NCBI GenBank assembly: GCA_003166335.1
Contig: PMWA01000066.1
Span: forward strand, 16,674-26,901
Length of the DNA: 10,228 bases
DNA from: Methanobacterium sp.
GTDB taxonomy: Archaea; Methanobacteriota; Methanobacteria; Methanobacteriales; Methanobacteriaceae
Direction of reading: 5' to 3'
The translations under genes were made by a program, and so were the position numbers. Below the pieces are notes generated by a model. That model was not told where the DNA came from, searched no databases, and saw nothing but the letters and a program-made list of their open reading frames with translations. This document shows, one piece after another, positions 2,571-8,772 of this stretch; the first letter of the stretch is position 1, and the number at the start of each line of letters is the position of its first letter.

Positions 2571-3560
2571 ATGACTCTAGTTTTGAATACAACTACGGCT
2601 GAAGGAATTGTATTAGCTGCAGATAGTAGACAATCGTATCGTAATCAAAAAGGTATGGCTCGAATTGGTAGTGATAATGCTTCAAAGCTTTTTCAAATGA
2701 ATAGAAGAATTGGTGTTGCTGTAACAGGATTGGCATTTTTACCGGAAAATGATGTAGCCAAAAATATAAGTAAATTTATTGATGAATTTAAACTCGACTC
2801 TAAAATCCAATCTGAGGAATTAGATGTTAAAGATGTAACTGAGAAGTTGTATGAACTTTTTAATGATAAATACAAATGGAAAGAACAACTTGAACAATTA
2901 AAACAAAATGTTAAATCTGACCTTACACCAAAAGGTTGTGAACTTAAAGAATTTAAAGAAGAAAATAATATTTTGAAATTCCGTTTTAAAACTCCTCAAG
3001 GAAATATAGAAGAAAGTTTAGTTACATTAGATATTATAGAGATCTTAGTTGCCGGCTATAATAATGACGGTTCCCACCAAGTTTACAGTATTAGAATCCC
3101 AGGAGAAATTAATTTACTTAGGAATAGTAACCAGAAAAATAATGAATACGGTAGTAGTTGGCTAGGGCAGGTAGATGTTGTTTCTAGAATCGTTCTTGGT
3201 TATGATGGCAGAATTGTTAATGTGCCATTCGTTAAAGATGCCATTGTAACTAGTGGTAATGATCAAATATCCACACAATTGCAAGGATTAGAATATTTAA
3301 TTCAATGGGGTACTATGACATTACAAGACGCTATGGATTATTGTAGGTTGATGATCCAAACCACTTCAGCAATTCAAAGATTTTCTGATGGTATTAGAGC
3401 AGATCCAGGAGATATGCCCGGAGTTGGAGGCCCTATAGATATAGCTGTAATAACACCAGACAAAGGGTTTGTTTGGATCAATAAAAAGAAACTAAAATTC
3501 GATGATACAATAGTTGATTTAGAAAAACAAGAAGAGTTAACAAACAAATCAAACAACTGA
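2571..3560 (+). CDS. Proteasome beta-subunit/HslV-like Ntn hydrolase, uncharacterised family
   Basis: 329 aa. After Met removal it reads Thr1...GIVLAAD17-S-R19. K38 (SKLF) and G52 (GVAVTG) match proteasome K33 and G47 with a constant 5-residue offset. ILVAGY strand and C-terminal GVGGPIDIAVIT are present. No propeptide. Confidence 0.8.
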   Translation: MTLVLNTTTAEGIVLAADSRQSYRNQKGMARIGSDNASKLFQMNRRIGVAVTGLAFLPENDVAKNISKFIDEFKLDSKIQSEELDVKDVTEKLYELFNDKYKWKEQLEQLKQNVKSDLTPKGCELKEFKEENNILKFRFKTPQGNIEESLVTLDIIEILVAGYNNDGSHQVYSIRIPGEINLLRNSNQKNNEYGSSWLGQVDVVSRIVLGYDGRIVNVPFVKDAIVTSGNDQISTQLQGLEYLIQWGTMTLQDAMDYCRLMIQTTSAIQRFSDGIRADPGDMPGVGGPIDIAVITPDKGFVWINKKKLKFDDTIVDLEKQEELTNKSNN

Positions 3561-3767: not shown

Positions 3768-4115
3768 TTAAGTTAGAAAATCAACCACTCTTTCAGCACT
3801 TCTTCTCATCTCAATCCGTATTAACCCTAAATTTATTTCTATATCAGTTATAACCACCAGTATACCTTCACCAGCATCAATCATAAGAGTTTTACCTTTG
3901 TTTCCCTCAATCATGACCTGTTGCAGTGGTTCATGTTTCATCTCCTCTGCAGATCTTTCAGCTGTACCAAAAACAGCAGATGACATCGCTGCCACTAATT
4001 CAGAGTCTACATCTGACGATACTTCACTTTCTATAATTAATCCATCTTTCCCTACCACAAGGGATCCGTTAACCCCATTAATTCTACCTAAATCTTTAAG
4101 TACTCTATCTATCAT
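3768..4115 (-). CDS. Roadblock/LC7 (MglB-like) domain protein
   Basis: 115 aa. [42 protein letters not shown] and [11 protein letters not shown] follow the Roadblock/LC7 pattern. GGAGG RBS on the - strand at 4126-4122. Confidence 0.93.
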
Positions 4116-4253
4116 ACTAAGCCTCCAAATAGAATTAGATTCTAACCCTTATTAAATAGTTTATACCAATAGTATATATCATGGTTTGATATTTATTAAA
4201 TAAATATATAATGAATATCCCATTGATATATCACTAACAATAGGAGTGATTTT
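4116..4253. promoter_or_regulatory. Divergent promoter region between the roadblock gene and the DUF1611-sepF cluster
   Basis: 138-bp AT-rich spacer between divergent starts, with an RBS at each end (GGAGG on -, GGAGTGA on +). It has several TATA-like hexamers and an inverted repeat ATATTTAT-taa-ATAAATAT at 4189-4207. Confidence 0.55.
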
Positions 4254-5321
4254 TTGTATTTTATTAGTTCGGTAGAAGACTTACAAGATCTCAACCCATT
4301 CATAGTAATTGGCTGCGGAGGAGGAGGAGAAAAATTTGCCAATTTTGAAGGAGTGAAGGCTATTGGCTTCATCGATGACGATAAAACAAAACACGGTTTA
4401 AAATTCTGTAATAAAACAATATATCCAGATCTAAATCAGCTCATCCAAGAAACAGATGCTCGAAGTGTAGCCATTATGCTTCCCATTGGAGCTGAAGGAA
4501 CCGCACTTAAATATGCAGTGCAGGGCATAGACAAAGGTAAAAATGTGGTTACATCCTTCCGATCTCTTCCACTTAACTTAAATCCATCCCTCACAAAGTT
4601 TGCCAAAGATAAAAATGTTGTCATAAAAGAGATCAGTCCCCGTTTAGATGTTATTAGAAAGATATTTGGAACAGGACCATCCCAATGCACTGAAATCCTA
4701 CCTAAATTGAAGTATAAACCTAAAAAACCTGTAATTTTTGTAGGCGGAACATCCCAAGAATGTGGTAAAAGAACTACCACTAGAATATTAGGAAAAACTG
4801 CTCAAGAGATGGGTTTAAAGTCAGTTGTAATCTCCACGGATGAACTAGGACTTGAAGGACCAGTAGACGTGAATTTTAGAGCAGGTAGTCTCTCTGTTAT
4901 GGATGTAGCTTCTGCGGTTATGGGAACAATTAGGTATATGGAAGAACATAAAAATCCGGATATAATATTTGTAGAGGGACAATCCAGCCTCACTGAAGAT
5001 AATAATCCTCATCCACGAGGTCTTTCAGCAGCGATAATGGTTGGAGCTCAACCTAATGCTACGATAGTATGTCATCGACCTAATCACCCCTATCGTTACC
5101 CCAGAGGCATAGAATATGAAATAAGAGCCATAGAAGCTGTTGAACCCACAAAAGTAGTTGGAATTTCTCTTAACCTTAGGAATGTTAAAAATAAGAGTGA
5201 ATTAAAGAACTTCCAAGAAAAATATGATTTACCTGTCGCGGATATTAAGAATGGAGGAGCATTCATATTATTGAATAAAATTATTGATCATTTAGGGATA
5301 AAATTCCAGAGTATTAAATAA
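4254..5321 (+). CDS. DUF1611-family protein (N-terminal Rossmann-like domain plus C-terminal P-loop domain)
   Basis: 355 aa, TTG start after GGAGTGA. N-terminal IVIGCGGGG...GFIDDD is Rossmann-like. The P-loop [12 protein letters not shown] resembles the family's [19 protein letters not shown] and [12 protein letters not shown] are characteristic of DUF1611. Confidence 0.85.
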
Positions 5322-5349
5322 ATTTTGATCAATTGAGGGGATTTTTAGA

Positions 5350-5703
5350 ATGAAGGATATAATGGATTATCTAAAAAAAAATCTTGGGTTGGAAGATGTA
5401 CACACGAATAAAGAAGAAGAAACTATAATAGTTCCTGAACACTCTTTCTATGAAATAATTTTAATGAAAATAAAGAATCTGGATGATTTTATCGATGCTT
5501 TACGTCATATAGAAGAAGAGAAAAATCCGATAATAATGGATTTAAGTCACTTCGAAAGAGATGTTCCAGAAGATTTCAGTACTGCAGGAGAAAAACTTAA
5601 AGCCTTCAGAGATAGAACTGGCGGTGAAGCAATATTACTCTGTAAAAATGGTAAGAATATTATAATTATAACTCCTCCTGAAATTAAACTTATAAGAAAA
5701 TGA
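5350..5703 (+). CDS. sepF: Cell division protein SepF (FtsZ membrane anchor)
   Basis: 117 aa. N-terminal amphipathic helix [14 protein letters not shown], short linker, then SepF core [11 protein letters not shown]...NPIIMDLS...AGEKLK...GGEAILL...NIIIITP. From memory this closely resembles Methanobrevibacter smithii SepF. RBS GAGGGG. Confidence 0.88.
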
Positions 5704-5812
5704 GTAATTAATATAATATAAGATATATTAACGTATTATAAAATGTTATTTTATCATTATTCTAAATTTAATTAAAAATTTTTTTATACATAATTTTATT
5801 AGAGGAAAAATA

Positions 5813-6976
5813 ATGGAAATGCCTATCATCAGTCCTTCTATAGTTTCTTACGCTGATGAATTAAATTTTAATCAGCTTTTAGAGGATCTGTTGAAGAATA
5901 AACATAATGGATTTATAAGAGTTACATCAGGTTCTTATGAAGGTTACATATTATTTAAAAATGGCAATCAAGTTGCCGCCTCATATGATAAATATTCCAA
6001 ATTAGAAGCCGTTGAAAGTATTAAATCTATTATAAAGGAGAATGATACTCTTATTGAAGTTTTTAATTTAAAAGAATCTCCTGTTGATTATCTTATTAAT
6101 GTAAACAAACCATATTTAATTGAATCAGGTAATGATGTATACGATGTTCTGAATGAATTAAAAAAATCAGATCATGACGAAATTGAGAACCCCAATAGTC
6201 ATGCAGAAACAAAATCTTCAAGAAAAAAACTAGAAAGTGAATCTGAAATCACTGAAGAGTCTAATACAGAAACTACACAATATATTCCAAAACCTTTAAA
6301 CAATGAACCAAAACCCACCCAAAAACAAACAATTCAACAAACAGAAGCATCTAATGAAGATAAACCTAAATTTACTTTAGAAAACGAGTCTAAAATTGAA
6401 TTATCAAATTCTGAAGTTAAATTAAAACAATCCAATCCATCAAATACAGAAAAAATTTTAGTTGATGACTCAACATATTCTAACGAATCCCCATCTGAAA
6501 AAGAAATTCAAATCCAAAAAGATGCAGTTGAAGATATTGAAAAAAAATCCACCATTGAAGATGAATCTATTGATCGCTCCACTCTTTTAAAAAAATATGG
6601 TATTAAAGAAATAAATGAAACCGATGTGGAAAATATTTTATATTCCTATAAAGGTGGATCCATAGATGATAATGACGTGGAAAAAATAGAACTAACTCTT
6701 ATGAATAAAATTAAAAAATCAATACTAGGTATACCTAAAATTATGAGTGCAGAAGTTCTAGTATTCCTTGACAATACCCATGAACTCTCAGGAAACACTA
6801 ATATTATCATAGAGCATGAGTCTAAAGGATTTTTCTCGAGAATGATAGGTGAATCAAGAGATACTGAAAATTTAAGACGACAAATTATAAATATTGCACA
6901 AATAGAAATAAAAAAGAGTTTCAGAAAATATCCTGAAATTATAAACAACTTTGAAATAAATGTAGAGATCAATTAG
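5813..6976 (+). CDS. DUF2226-like protein: N-terminal globular domain, long low-complexity linker, C-terminal globular domain
   Basis: 387 aa. N-terminal HNGFIRVTSGSYEGYILFKNGNQVAASY fits the DUF2226 (PATAN/DUF4388-like) GxIRV...EGYIxFxxG pattern. Residues ~118-253 are E/S/N/K/T-rich. The last ~130 aa look folded. GAGG RBS. Confidence 0.72.
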   Translation: MEMPIISPSIVSYADELNFNQLLEDLLKNKHNGFIRVTSGSYEGYILFKNGNQVAASYDKYSKLEAVESIKSIIKENDTLIEVFNLKESPVDYLINVNKPYLIESGNDVYDVLNELKKSDHDEIENPNSHAETKSSRKKLESESEITEESNTETTQYIPKPLNNEPKPTQKQTIQQTEASNEDKPKFTLENESKIELSNSEVKLKQSNPSNTEKILVDDSTYSNESPSEKEIQIQKDAVEDIEKKSTIEDESIDRSTLLKKYGIKEINETDVENILYSYKGGSIDDNDVEKIELTLMNKIKKSILGIPKIMSAEVLVFLDNTHELSGNTNIIIEHESKGFFSRMIGESRDTENLRRQIINIAQIEIKKSFRKYPEIINNFEINVEIN

Positions 6977-6988
6977 GGGGAATATTAT

Positions 6989-7768
6989 TTGACAAGAGTT
7001 ATAGCAGTTGCTTCTGGAAAGGGTGGAGTGGGAAAAACCACCATAACTGCTAATTTAGGAGTAGCTTTATCCACCTATGGAGAAGAAACATTAGTATTGG
7101 ATGCCGATGTGGCCATGGCTAACTTAGAACTGATTTTAGGGATGGAAGGTAAGTCAGTAACTCTGCACGATGTGCTTTCCGGAGATGCAGAAATCGAAGA
7201 AGCTGTATATGAGGGTCCCGGTGGGGTGAAAGTTGTCCCAGCAGGTATATCCTTGGAAGGTCTTCGGAAAATTAAATTAGACAGACTAGAGAATGCATTA
7301 TCGAAATTGGTTCAAAATGTGGATATACTTTTAATAGATGCACCTGCAGGCCTGGAAAAAGATGCCTTAGCAGCTATAGCTGCTGCTCAGGAAATGATTC
7401 TAGTCACAACACCCGAAGTTCCATCCATTAGTGATGCACTTAAAACTAAAATCGTGGCCAATAAATTAGGAGTAGAAATCACAGGAGTGGTAATAAATCG
7501 GGAGATGCACGATAAAACATTTTTAACCATAAATGAGATTGAAACCATACTAGAAGTTCCCGTGATAGCAGTTATTCCGGACGATCCGGAAGTGAGTCGA
7601 GCAGCCGCTTTTGGAGAAGCATTAGTTGTTAGGAATCCTAAATCACCTACCAGTAACGCTATAATGCAGTTAGCTGCGGATTTAATTGGAGAAAATTATC
7701 AACCTATTGAACCCGATAAGAAGAGTATAATCGCTAAATTAGTGGAAGGTCTTTTAGGTCGTAGATAA
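6989..7768 (+). CDS. minD: Archaeal cell division ATPase MinD
   Basis: 259 aa. Deviant Walker [11 protein letters not shown], switch [10 protein letters not shown], Walker [13 protein letters not shown], and C-terminal amphipathic helix [19 protein letters not shown] start, with a GGGGG RBS overlapping the upstream TAG stop. Confidence 0.95.
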
Positions 7769-7845
7769 TTAAAAAAAAATATAGAATTCAAATAGGAATA
7801 TTTTTTTACAACCCATTCTATGAATAGATATAAAATGGTTTAAAA

Positions 7846-8634
7846 ATGCCGAGATTTGTAGCAATTGCATCAGGAAAGGGTGGAGTTGGAAGAACTACTC
7901 TAACATTTAATTTAGGAGTGGCTATGTCCCTCTTCGGCGAAAAAATTGTTATGCTAGATTTAGATTTAGTAATGGCAAATTTAGACGTTATAACTGGGCT
8001 TTTAAATCCTGATGTGACATTACATGATGTTTTAGTGAGAGATAAATCTATAGAAGACTGTGTATATGAAATAGAAAATGGTATACGAGTAATTCCAACA
8101 GGCATCCACTTTGAAACACTTAAACATATTAATCCTAATTATATATCTTGGAATAAGATAATTAAAGAAGGCGCCAATTATGGTGACATTTTTTTGATGG
8201 ATATACCCGCAGGAATTAACTCTAACGTTTTTGACGGTCTTCCCGAAGACACTGAAATTTTAATAATTACTAATTCTACCATGACTTCTGTCGCTGATGC
8301 TCTTAAGATGAGAATACTCTTTAACGAATTAGATATTAATGTTTTAGGTTTTGTTTTAAATATGTGGTATGATGATAAGTTTCTGCTTTCACCTAATGAA
8401 ATAGAAGCTATATTAGAGATTCCAATTATTAGCATCATCCCCTATGACAGGGAAATGGATCGATCTTTGGCTATGGGAAGATCTGTAGTAGAAGTAAACC
8501 CTTCATCACCAACCAGTAATGCTATAATGCAGCTTGCAGCAGATCTTTTAGGTGAAACCTATGAATCAATCCAACCTGATAAACAAAGCATACTTAACAG
8601 GCTTAAGAAATTTGTGGGTTTACTCCCCGAATAA
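7846..8634 (+). CDS. MinD paralogue with degenerate Walker A (GKGGVGRTT)
   Basis: 262 aa, collinear with the upstream MinD (shared VTLHDVL and [14 protein letters not shown]). The catalytic Lys codon is AGA (Arg) at 7891-7893. It keeps DLD..MANL, MDIPAG and the C-terminal amphipathic helix KQSILNRLKKFVGLL. Confidence 0.88.
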   Translation: MPRFVAIASGKGGVGRTTLTFNLGVAMSLFGEKIVMLDLDLVMANLDVITGLLNPDVTLHDVLVRDKSIEDCVYEIENGIRVIPTGIHFETLKHINPNYISWNKIIKEGANYGDIFLMDIPAGINSNVFDGLPEDTEILIITNSTMTSVADALKMRILFNELDINVLGFVLNMWYDDKFLLSPNEIEAILEIPIISIIPYDREMDRSLAMGRSVVEVNPSSPTSNAIMQLAADLLGETYESIQPDKQSILNRLKKFVGLLPE

Positions 8635-8712
8635 TAATTCAATTGAACTTCAACTTTCAAGGAAATTTAATTATTTTAAGGATAATTCAATTTTTATATA
8701 AATTAAAATCTA

Positions 8713-8733
8713 GAAATGTTGAAGTAACATTTC
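8713..8733. promoter_or_regulatory. Inverted repeat, possible operator upstream of the PfkB kinase gene
   Basis: Perfect 8-bp arms GAAATGTT-gaagt-AACATTTC, lying between two TATA-like elements (~8693-8702 and ~8739-8748). Confidence 0.35.
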
Positions 8734-8772
8734 AAACATTTAATATAAAAAATTTTTTGAGAGGTTTTAACC

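Follow-up and report, generated by a model that had tools for sequence, protein, structure and literature searches.

In the genome of a Methanobacterium sp., the genes for a Roadblock/LC7 protein, a DUF2226 protein and an archaeal MinD ATPase, the last with an apparently degenerate paralogue termed MinD*, flank a DUF1611-sepF gene pair, and it is on balance somewhat probable that they form one accessory positioning module based on MinD. The genes lie in a stretch of 10,228 nucleotides, the whole of which is called the window here (G000:C102:16674-26901; genome of 2.49 Mb, 99.4% complete). DUF1611-sepF is the constant core of the locus, and an accessory set is made up of Roadblock, DUF2226 and MinD.

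To our knowledge, archaeal MinD is widespread and no partner of the MinC or MinE type is known for it. MinC and MinE are described as absent from the Euryarchaeota that have MinD (PMC13228585), and the MinD partners of Haloferax as remaining unidentified (PMC11588486). An initial annotation of the locus had proposed that Roadblock and/or the DUF2226 protein regulate MinD and couple it to SepF and FtsZ. The first half of this proposal gained ground, Roadblock and DUF2226 being plausible MinD partners that form a linked set with it by genus pattern, by adjacency in a second phylum and by a weakly scoring predicted complex; the second half, the coupling to SepF and FtsZ, did not gain support.

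Distribution and gene order

Each protein family was searched for in all of 81 genomes of the class Methanobacteria, from 4 families and 18 genera (the GTDB phylum here is this class). DUF1611 was found as a single copy in every genome, archaeal MinD and Roadblock in 46 genomes each, and DUF2226 in 42. At the level of genera, MinD, Roadblock and DUF2226 followed one identical pattern, with all three present in 12 of the 18 and none in the same six.

Gene order was compared in 20 representative loci, 11 from MinD-positive and nine from MinD-negative genera. All 11 positive loci had the order ZPR1<, 2-PGK<, Robl<, DUF1611>, SepF>, DUF2226>, MinD>, (MinD*>), PfkB>, TatD<. The nine negative loci all kept ZPR1/2-PGK and the DUF1611-SepF..TatD part, and Roadblock, DUF2226, MinD and PfkB were gone from each. 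Because Roadblock and DUF2226-MinD flank the retained DUF1611-sepF pair on opposite sides, at least two deletions are needed to account for the negative genera. In a tree of DUF1611, one branch (support 86/84) separates the nine negative loci from the rest. The initial annotation had counted DUF1611 as a member of the module; it goes with sepF instead, the two being adjacent in 19 of the 20 loci, including eight of the nine negative ones (they lie 16 kb apart in L016). On this distribution, DUF1611 is probably not part of the MinD set and may be tied to the cell-wall or division biology of the class. SepF frames were longer in the MinD-less genus g5 (130-210 amino acids) than in MinD-positive genera (117-126 amino acids).

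Among 89 Methanobacteria loci the gene order was the same in every one, as far as the contigs reach, and the arrangement is thus no product of chance; this sample is not independent evidence, because it was collected by similarity to DUF2226. The housekeeping genes ZPR1, 2-PGK, PfkB and TatD were equally syntenic, so that a functional link cannot be proved by gene order inside the class. Methanothermobacter thermautotrophicus carries a cluster of the L004 type. Families f2-f4 have compact genomes, in which neighbouring genes of the run DUF1611 to PfkB lay 0-25 bp apart, bar one gap of 158 bp, and sepF and DUF2226 were separated by 1-17 bp in these three families (spacings cover ten of the 11 positive loci, L012 being left aside, and a value of 689 bp for L011 is a start-codon artefact). 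To judge by these spacings, the run looks like an operon, PfkB included. A profile search of genome contigs with a DUF2226 alignment returned matches in Methanobacteriaceae only, and in a metagenome scan with a three-sequence DUF2226 alignment 593 stretches matched the pattern, none of which was confirmed as a relative.

Outside the class, the comparison covered one second phylum of 38 genomes, entered through a genome of the same domain (G159). Of these, 20 have DUF2226 and 23 have Roadblock, with both in 16, DUF2226 only in four, Roadblock only in seven and neither in 11 (odds ratio 6.3 and Fisher p 0.019, without correction for relatedness). In ten of the 16 genomes with both, drawn from six families, DUF2226 lay within ~1.5 kb of Roadblock, and the arrangements varied (Robl>DUF2226, DUF2226>Robl, divergent). 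The neighbourhoods were annotated with Pfam for the 91 open reading frames (ORFs) nearest to DUF2226, out of 132 called in 14 loci; Roadblock stood beside DUF2226 in seven of these loci, and three further loci ended at a contig edge.

MinD joined the cluster in two second-phylum loci. The first, L109, had the order Robl>DUF2226>165 aa>141 aa>MinD, with a Roadblock 56% and a MinD 52% identical to the window proteins; the two ORFs between DUF2226 and MinD resembled neither the Roadblock nor the DUF2226-N profile (hhalign probability <1%). The second, L112 (G166:C1:63000-78000), contained a methyl-accepting chemotaxis protein, a HEAT protein, a fusion of the DUF2226 N domain to HEAT repeats (DUF2226-N::HEAT, 638 amino acids) and MinD, and hints at a chemotaxis-linked variant. 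In a further locus, L116, the Roadblock-DUF2226 pair stood beside a sensor protein. DUF1611 was not found in any of five genomes of this phylum searched for it, and SepF, found in four of the five, lay in all four on a contig other than those of DUF2226, Roadblock and MinD; OapB was found in all five. As judged from the genomes compared, the deep association is that of Roadblock with DUF2226, with MinD as a frequent but not obligate third member, and the sepF/DUF1611 adjacency appears special to Methanobacteria.

DUF2226 and Roadblock as candidate MinD partners

The window's DUF2226 ORF matched the Pfam family DUF2226 (PF09987) with 31.9 bits (cut-off 22). Alignments and models gave a layout of an N domain (residues 1-115; model pLDDT 89.8), an acidic, proline-rich disordered linker (about 116-250) whose length varies between orthologues, and a C domain (about 285-387). 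A helix that follows the linker, from R255, carries the motif R-x-x-L-L-K-K-Y-G-[LI]-K, seen also as R-E-E-L-L-K-K-Y-G-L-K-E-P; the motif is kept in both phyla, with an invariant Arg and Lys, which in the window protein are R255 and K261. The C domain was modelled as alpha-beta-beta-alpha-beta, and its fold matched the C-terminal domains of MamB and MamM (Z 9.5 and 8.8, root mean square deviation (rmsd) 1.6-1.8 over 76 residues) and the ring-building motifs of PrgK, EscJ and FliF (Z 8.4-8.7). As modelled, it resembles common dimerising or ring-forming modules only.

The N domain gave a match to PatA_N/PATAN (PF14332) of 18.7 bits over residues 16-88, under the cut-off of 25. Its best fold matches (Foldseek E 0.068; VIA Z 5.2, rmsd 3.6 over 88 residues) were so weak that no family can be named for it. 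Fold searches of the DUF2226 domains returned no match to MinC, MinE, Roadblock or receiver domains, although such a relationship is still possible. A structural atlas, used for leads only, placed PatA_N clusters among the structural neighbours of DUF2226 at a TM score of ~0.4; it also held clusters named as DUF2226/Roadblock fusion proteins (scores <0.9), which are counted here in favour of the module. A short second match resembling the DUF2226 N domain (~150 amino acids, often through an in-frame TAG) was seen in many class genomes, for example at G028:C1:1586063-1586614, G077:C6:65426-65800 and G012:C1:265616-265981. It lay mostly 23-35 kb, and in G019 75 kb, from the gene of a type IV pilus ATPase, and none was found in the window's own genome.

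A predicted complex gave weak support for DUF2226 seated on a MinD dimer. The complex that was folded consisted of two MinD chains, two ATP and a short-linker DUF2226, all L002 orthologues, and it scored 0.42, the best control reaching 0.06. In the benchmark of the method, 116 of 157 solved complexes and two of 215 mismatched pairs attained this mark; at scores of 0.60 or below there were only 18 of the 157 solved complexes, together with both of the mismatched pairs that passed. Between runs at least 47% of contacts agreed, with a partner pLDDT of at least 69. On this model, DUF2226 as a direct MinD partner is weakly supported.

The family names given in the initial annotation all held in Pfam and NCBIfam. 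The Roadblock ORF matched Robl_LC7 with 72.1 bits (cut-off 23), and its profile matched the solved chains 7F8M and 7YH1 at E ~1e-19 and MglB at E 4.5e-4. Against the archaeal MinD model TIGR01969 (cut-off 201.75), MinD scored 373.4 bits and MinD* 242.6 bits; MinD also matched the solved chain 1HYQ (E 1.9e-83) and solved FleN chains (E ~1e-30). Three products with P-loops had been described, which was confirmed, though in MinD* the Walker A Lys is exchanged for Arg: the pattern KGGxxGK[ST] is intact in MinD and not in MinD*, and the substitution occurs in all five MinD* orthologues, with Lys in all 13 other aligned MinD sequences. MinD* was found only in genera g1, g2, g4, g7 and g10 of family f1. 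By sequence it is a later tandem, degenerate copy of MinD, predicted to be impaired in ATP hydrolysis. The terminal amphipathic helices that had been described were supported by the helical hydrophobic moment of 11-mers ranked within each protein (SepF N terminus, 94.4th percentile; MinD C terminus, 96.8th; MinD* C terminus, 99.6th), but the MinD tail was without support in a cruder 16-mer test. Neither Roadblock nor DUF2226 adjoins a third MinD of the genome, which lies on contig C20.

One way in which such a module could work is as follows. ATP-bound MinD would dimerise and hold the membrane through its C-terminal amphipathic tail. The DUF2226 protein would attach to the MinD dimer, perhaps by way of the invariant Arg/Lys helix after its linker, by analogy with the short basic peptides of MinE or ParB that stimulate ParA/MinD ATPases, and its C-terminal domain would oligomerise. 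The PATAN-like N domain and the Roadblock dimer would serve as regulator or cargo adaptor, and MinD*, with its Lys-to-Arg change, would be a poorly hydrolysing partner that tunes the MinD cycle. The sepF neighbourhood may reflect shared expression timing.

Several points weigh against a module of this composition. The Pfam DUF2226 model found no match in four of the 46 MinD-positive genomes (G017, G039, G042 and G071). These four also have Roadblock, and the missing matches probably reflect a weak model, which is suspected because the window's own DUF2226 scores only ~30 bits against it; in G039 and G071, ~1.5 kb is free between sepF and minD. The shared absence amounts to one loss lineage and not to repeated events, because the six negative genera form one clade. 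PfkB, too, is gone at the negative loci, and it lies 6-25 bp behind MinD in compact genomes, so that co-loss and tight spacing cannot separate partners from bystanders. The predicted complex was built from shallow alignments and from orthologues, not from the window's own proteins. In the second phylum, most Roadblock-DUF2226 clusters are without MinD within 4.5 kb, the genomes hold four or five MinD paralogues, mostly elsewhere, and MinD paralogues occur in three of five genomes that have neither DUF2226 nor Roadblock; since the clusters are mostly without MinD and MinD occurs without them, the usual partner could be other than MinD.

It could also be that the genes have no functional link at all, their order being inherited in a slowly rearranging region and the losses being one large reduction in one clade. 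The conservation of the whole ten-gene block, with ZPR1, 2-PGK, PfkB and TatD, agrees with this, as does the single loss lineage, most members of which are also without all Roadblock paralogues and DipB in what looks like general streamlining. Such an account is at odds with the recurrence of the Roadblock-DUF2226 adjacency in a second phylum, in varied arrangements and with MinD in two loci, and with the weak support from the complex fold, and we regard it as quite improbable. Preference is given to the accessory MinD-based module.

The locus, its transcripts and neighbouring genes

The six ORFs of the locus span 3768..8634 of the window, with Roadblock on the reverse strand and DUF1611, SepF, DUF2226, MinD and MinD* following on the forward strand (Table 1). 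The intergenic gaps after DUF1611 are 28, 109, 12 and 77 bp, and these, the coordinates and the 138 bp of the divergent Roadblock/DUF1611 spacer agreed exactly with those first annotated. A family scan of 12 window ORFs found no MinC or MinE family, for which no genome-wide search was made, and no small GTPase of the MglA type, as had been said of minC, minE and mglA; nor did it find pilus, archaellum or chemotaxis genes in the window.

Table 1. Features of the locus, in window positions, and gene junctions bridged by contigs from RNA libraries.
Feature	Position	Strand	Remarks
Roadblock/LC7 protein, 115 aa	3768..4115	-	divergent from DUF1611; accessory-set member
Divergent spacer, 138 bp, 23% GC	4116..4253		presumed promoters in both directions
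DUF1611 protein, 355 aa	4254..5321	+	Rossmann-like N domain and P-loop domain; constant upstream partner of sepF
SepF, 117 aa	5350..5703	+	FtsZ membrane anchor homologue with N-terminal amphipathic segment
DUF2226 protein, 387 aa	5813..6976	+	candidate MinD partner
Archaeal MinD, 259 aa	6989..7768	+	deviant Walker A GKGGVGKT intact; basic/hydrophobic C-terminal tail
MinD*, 262 aa	7846..8634	+	tandem MinD paralogue, Walker A GKGGVGRT
DUF1611>SepF junction			bridged in X3 and X4 by RNA-library contigs
SepF>DUF2226 junction			bridged in X1 (record 4) by an RNA-library contig
DUF2226>MinD junction			bridged in X1 by RNA-library contigs
MinD>MinD* junction			bridged in X2 and X3 by RNA-library contigs
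MinD*>PfkB junction			bridged in X1, X2 and X3 by RNA-library contigs

The window stretch was present in peat metatranscriptomes from 17 studies, and the gene junctions were examined in contigs assembled from four peat RNA libraries (X1-X4). The bridging contigs are compatible with co-transcription, but such contigs cannot show single transcripts and are no proof of it; those across the DUF2226>MinD and MinD>MinD* junctions are counted in favour of the module. DNA carry-over in the libraries is possible, because one contig (X2 record 10) crosses the 138-bp divergent spacer and another (X1 record 1) the convergent junction between Roadblock and the gene of a proteasome-like protein. RNA depth dipped around 5412-5913, and none of the listed contigs covers the cluster from end to end; neither point is counted as a finding. 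By motif inspection, oligo-T runs were seen in the 109-bp and 77-bp gaps and in a 138-bp gap at 8635-8772, and sepF, DUF2226 and minD are each preceded by ribosome-binding-like GAGG/GGGG. With spacer DNA of 10-23% GC, promoters cannot be called from such motifs. An X1 contig carried a five-base insertion (TAATA) at window position 5708, in the AT-rich sepF-DUF2226 spacer, which is probably strain variation.

The DUF1611 ORF matched the Pfam P-loop domain with 159.5 bits and DUF1611_N with 42.3 bits. Its assignment as the DgcN N-acetyltransferase (NF041892) was rejected at 32.7 bits against a curated cut-off of 480, and the literature on DUF1611 held nothing informative on its role. At 2571-3560 of the window, a 329-amino-acid protein matched the proteasome subunit family (28.9 bits) over its first ~90 residues only, and appears to be a divergent Ntn-hydrolase-like protein whose long C-terminal part has no family match. 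Upstream on the same contig, at 5067-6155 (-) of L101, lies a gene for a second Roadblock-domain protein of 362 amino acids (Robl_LC7 at residues 12-83). It is directly downstream of genes for the large and small subunits of a [NiFe]-hydrogenase (L101 6384-8760) and ~14 kb from the module; many relatives have matching ORFs of 360-446 amino acids at a distance of 7-14 kb from the module.

Cell division, pili and the closest known systems

The window SepF matched Pfam with 29.2 bits (cut-off 27), and its residues 25-117 matched the solved SepF chains 7AL1/7AL2 at E 5.5e-22. It was the sole SepF match in the genome and, by these matches, is a true SepF and not DipB. The sole match to FtsZ_C in the genome was at G000:C96:8536-8652 (39 of 95 model positions, in a 74-amino-acid frame), where ftsZ may lie at the contig edge.

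The proposal that Roadblock or DUF2226 couples MinD to SepF and FtsZ found no support: only in Methanobacteria is sepF a neighbour, and housekeeping genes show as much synteny there, while the second-phylum SepF is unlinked in all four genomes where it was found. The coupling is unproven, its basis being the class-specific neighbourhood, and that neighbourhood is not evidence that FtsZ is the cargo. Both facts about synteny also weigh against the broader idea of a division-site system independent of MinC and MinE, with Roadblock and/or DUF2226 as the proposed link between MinD and SepF/FtsZ. To its credit, DUF2226 immediately follows sepF in each of the 11 representative loci of MinD-positive genera, at the close spacing given above in the three compact-genome families, and RNA contig record 4 of X1 bridges the two genes. 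The two-domain-plus-linker layout of DUF2226 recalls MinC and also DipC (for the latter, PMC13228585), but the DUF2226 folds show no MinC or MinE likeness, and deletion of all four MinDs left division in Haloferax unaffected (PMC11588486).

The same idea also meets a known positioner. In Haloferax, an oscillator made of a GTPase, a protein resembling SepF and a Zn-ribbon protein places FtsZ, and it is widespread in FtsZ-using archaea (PMC13228585; 10.64898/2026.07.23.738820). None of the Arf-like GTPase, DUF2073/OapB and the Zn-ribbon protein OapC is encoded in the window, but the genome has the full Oap/Dip/Arco operon: OapC, OapB and a GTPase with a basic/hydrophobic N terminus are all encoded on contig C123 (G000:C123). 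OapB was found in 48 of the 81 class genomes and was not found in five of the six genera without the MinD set. This joint loss, in which the known positioner and the module were both given up, favours a division-site system, though genus g13 keeps DipB without the MinD set; across these genomes it fits a role in cell geometry, but it concerns the same single clade. Taking both sides together, a division-site system is unlikely.

FleN/MinD-type ATPases, MglB-type Roadblocks and PATAN-domain proteins place or regulate polar structures in other systems. The module could likewise place or regulate a structure other than the division site, such as type IV pili or polar assemblies, the position of sepF being a historical accident. 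Archaeal type IV pilus loci have been linked to FleN/MinD (arCOG00589) and Roadblock (arCOG02603) (Makarova 2016, PMC4858521), PATAN has been reported near MglA/MglB (PMC4316618, citing Makarova 2006), in Synechocystis the pilus motor is a binding target of PATAN response regulators (10.1101/2021.06.11.447907), and MinD2 and MinD4 of Haloferax place motility and chemotaxis machinery (PMC11588486). In the second phylum, the chemoreceptor beside the DUF2226-N fusion and MinD in L112 and the sensor protein beside the pair in L116 point the same way. Against a dedicated role in pili, the pilus ATPase T2SSE was present in 80 of the 81 class genomes, including five of the six genera without the module, and the window has no pilus, archaellum or chemotaxis gene; with T2SSE kept so widely, loss of the module did not go along with loss of pili. 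On this evidence a pilus or polar-assembly role is doubtful, and an accessory module based on MinD, its cargo left unspecified, is the reading retained.

Among characterised systems, the module is like bacterial MinCDE in having a MinD ATPase with a deviant Walker A motif and a C-terminal membrane-targeting tail, encoded beside partner genes and a division gene. It differs in its candidate partners, Roadblock and DUF2226, which are unrelated in sequence to MinC and MinE and gave no fold match to them; oscillation and an effect on FtsZ are features of MinCDE, whereas the module is known here from genes and models. MinD2 and MinD4 of Haloferax volcanii share the archaeal MinD family, and they position cellular machinery with unidentified partners; they place archaella and chemotaxis arrays and are dispensable for division, and no Roadblock or DUF2226 partner is reported for them in the available part of the paper (PMC11588486). 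A Haloferax control genome gave no DUF2226 match. The M. jannaschii control genome matched DUF2226, Roadblock, MinD and SepF, and Methanococci are reported to lack Dip (PMC13228585). The FleN/FlhG-type MinD ATPases belong to the same superfamily, and archaeal loci for type IV pili are associated with arCOG00589 (PMC4858521), but no pilus genes lie near the module and its distribution does not follow the pilus ATPase.

The MglA/MglB switch of Myxococcus and relatives, with its PATAN neighbours, offers another parallel, a Roadblock standing beside a PATAN-like protein and a nucleotide triphosphatase (NTPase) (PMC4316618). There, however, the NTPase is a Ras-like GTPase and not a MinD-type ATPase, no small GTPase is encoded in the window, and the PATAN likeness of DUF2226 is below the Pfam cut-off. 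The Dip/Arco/Oap system resembles the module in combining an NTPase that binds the membrane with small partners, among them a two-domain protein with a disordered linker; it positions FtsZ, and most genera without the MinD set gave no match to it either. It is built from other proteins (an Arf-like GTPase, the SepF-like DUF2073/OapB and the Zn-ribbon OapC), encoded elsewhere in the genome. A more elaborate reading, that Roadblock and DUF2226 are archaeal MinD partners forming an ATPase-based counterpart of MglA/MglB/PATAN and setting the division site of rod-shaped, pseudomurein-walled methanogens beside SepF together with Oap/Dip/Arco, is distinctly improbable.

A literature search, with the supplementary tables of PMC13228585 and PMC8178401 outside it, found no report of a pairing of Roadblock with MinD/ParA and none of 'DUF2226'. 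Should the sepF link be true, two division-site systems would operate in parallel in Methanobacteria. The Roadblock-DUF2226-MinD gene set names two candidate partners for archaeal MinD and, if the module is real, would be the first case in which a regulator of Roadblock fold is paired with an ATPase of the MinD/ParA type instead of a small GTPase.

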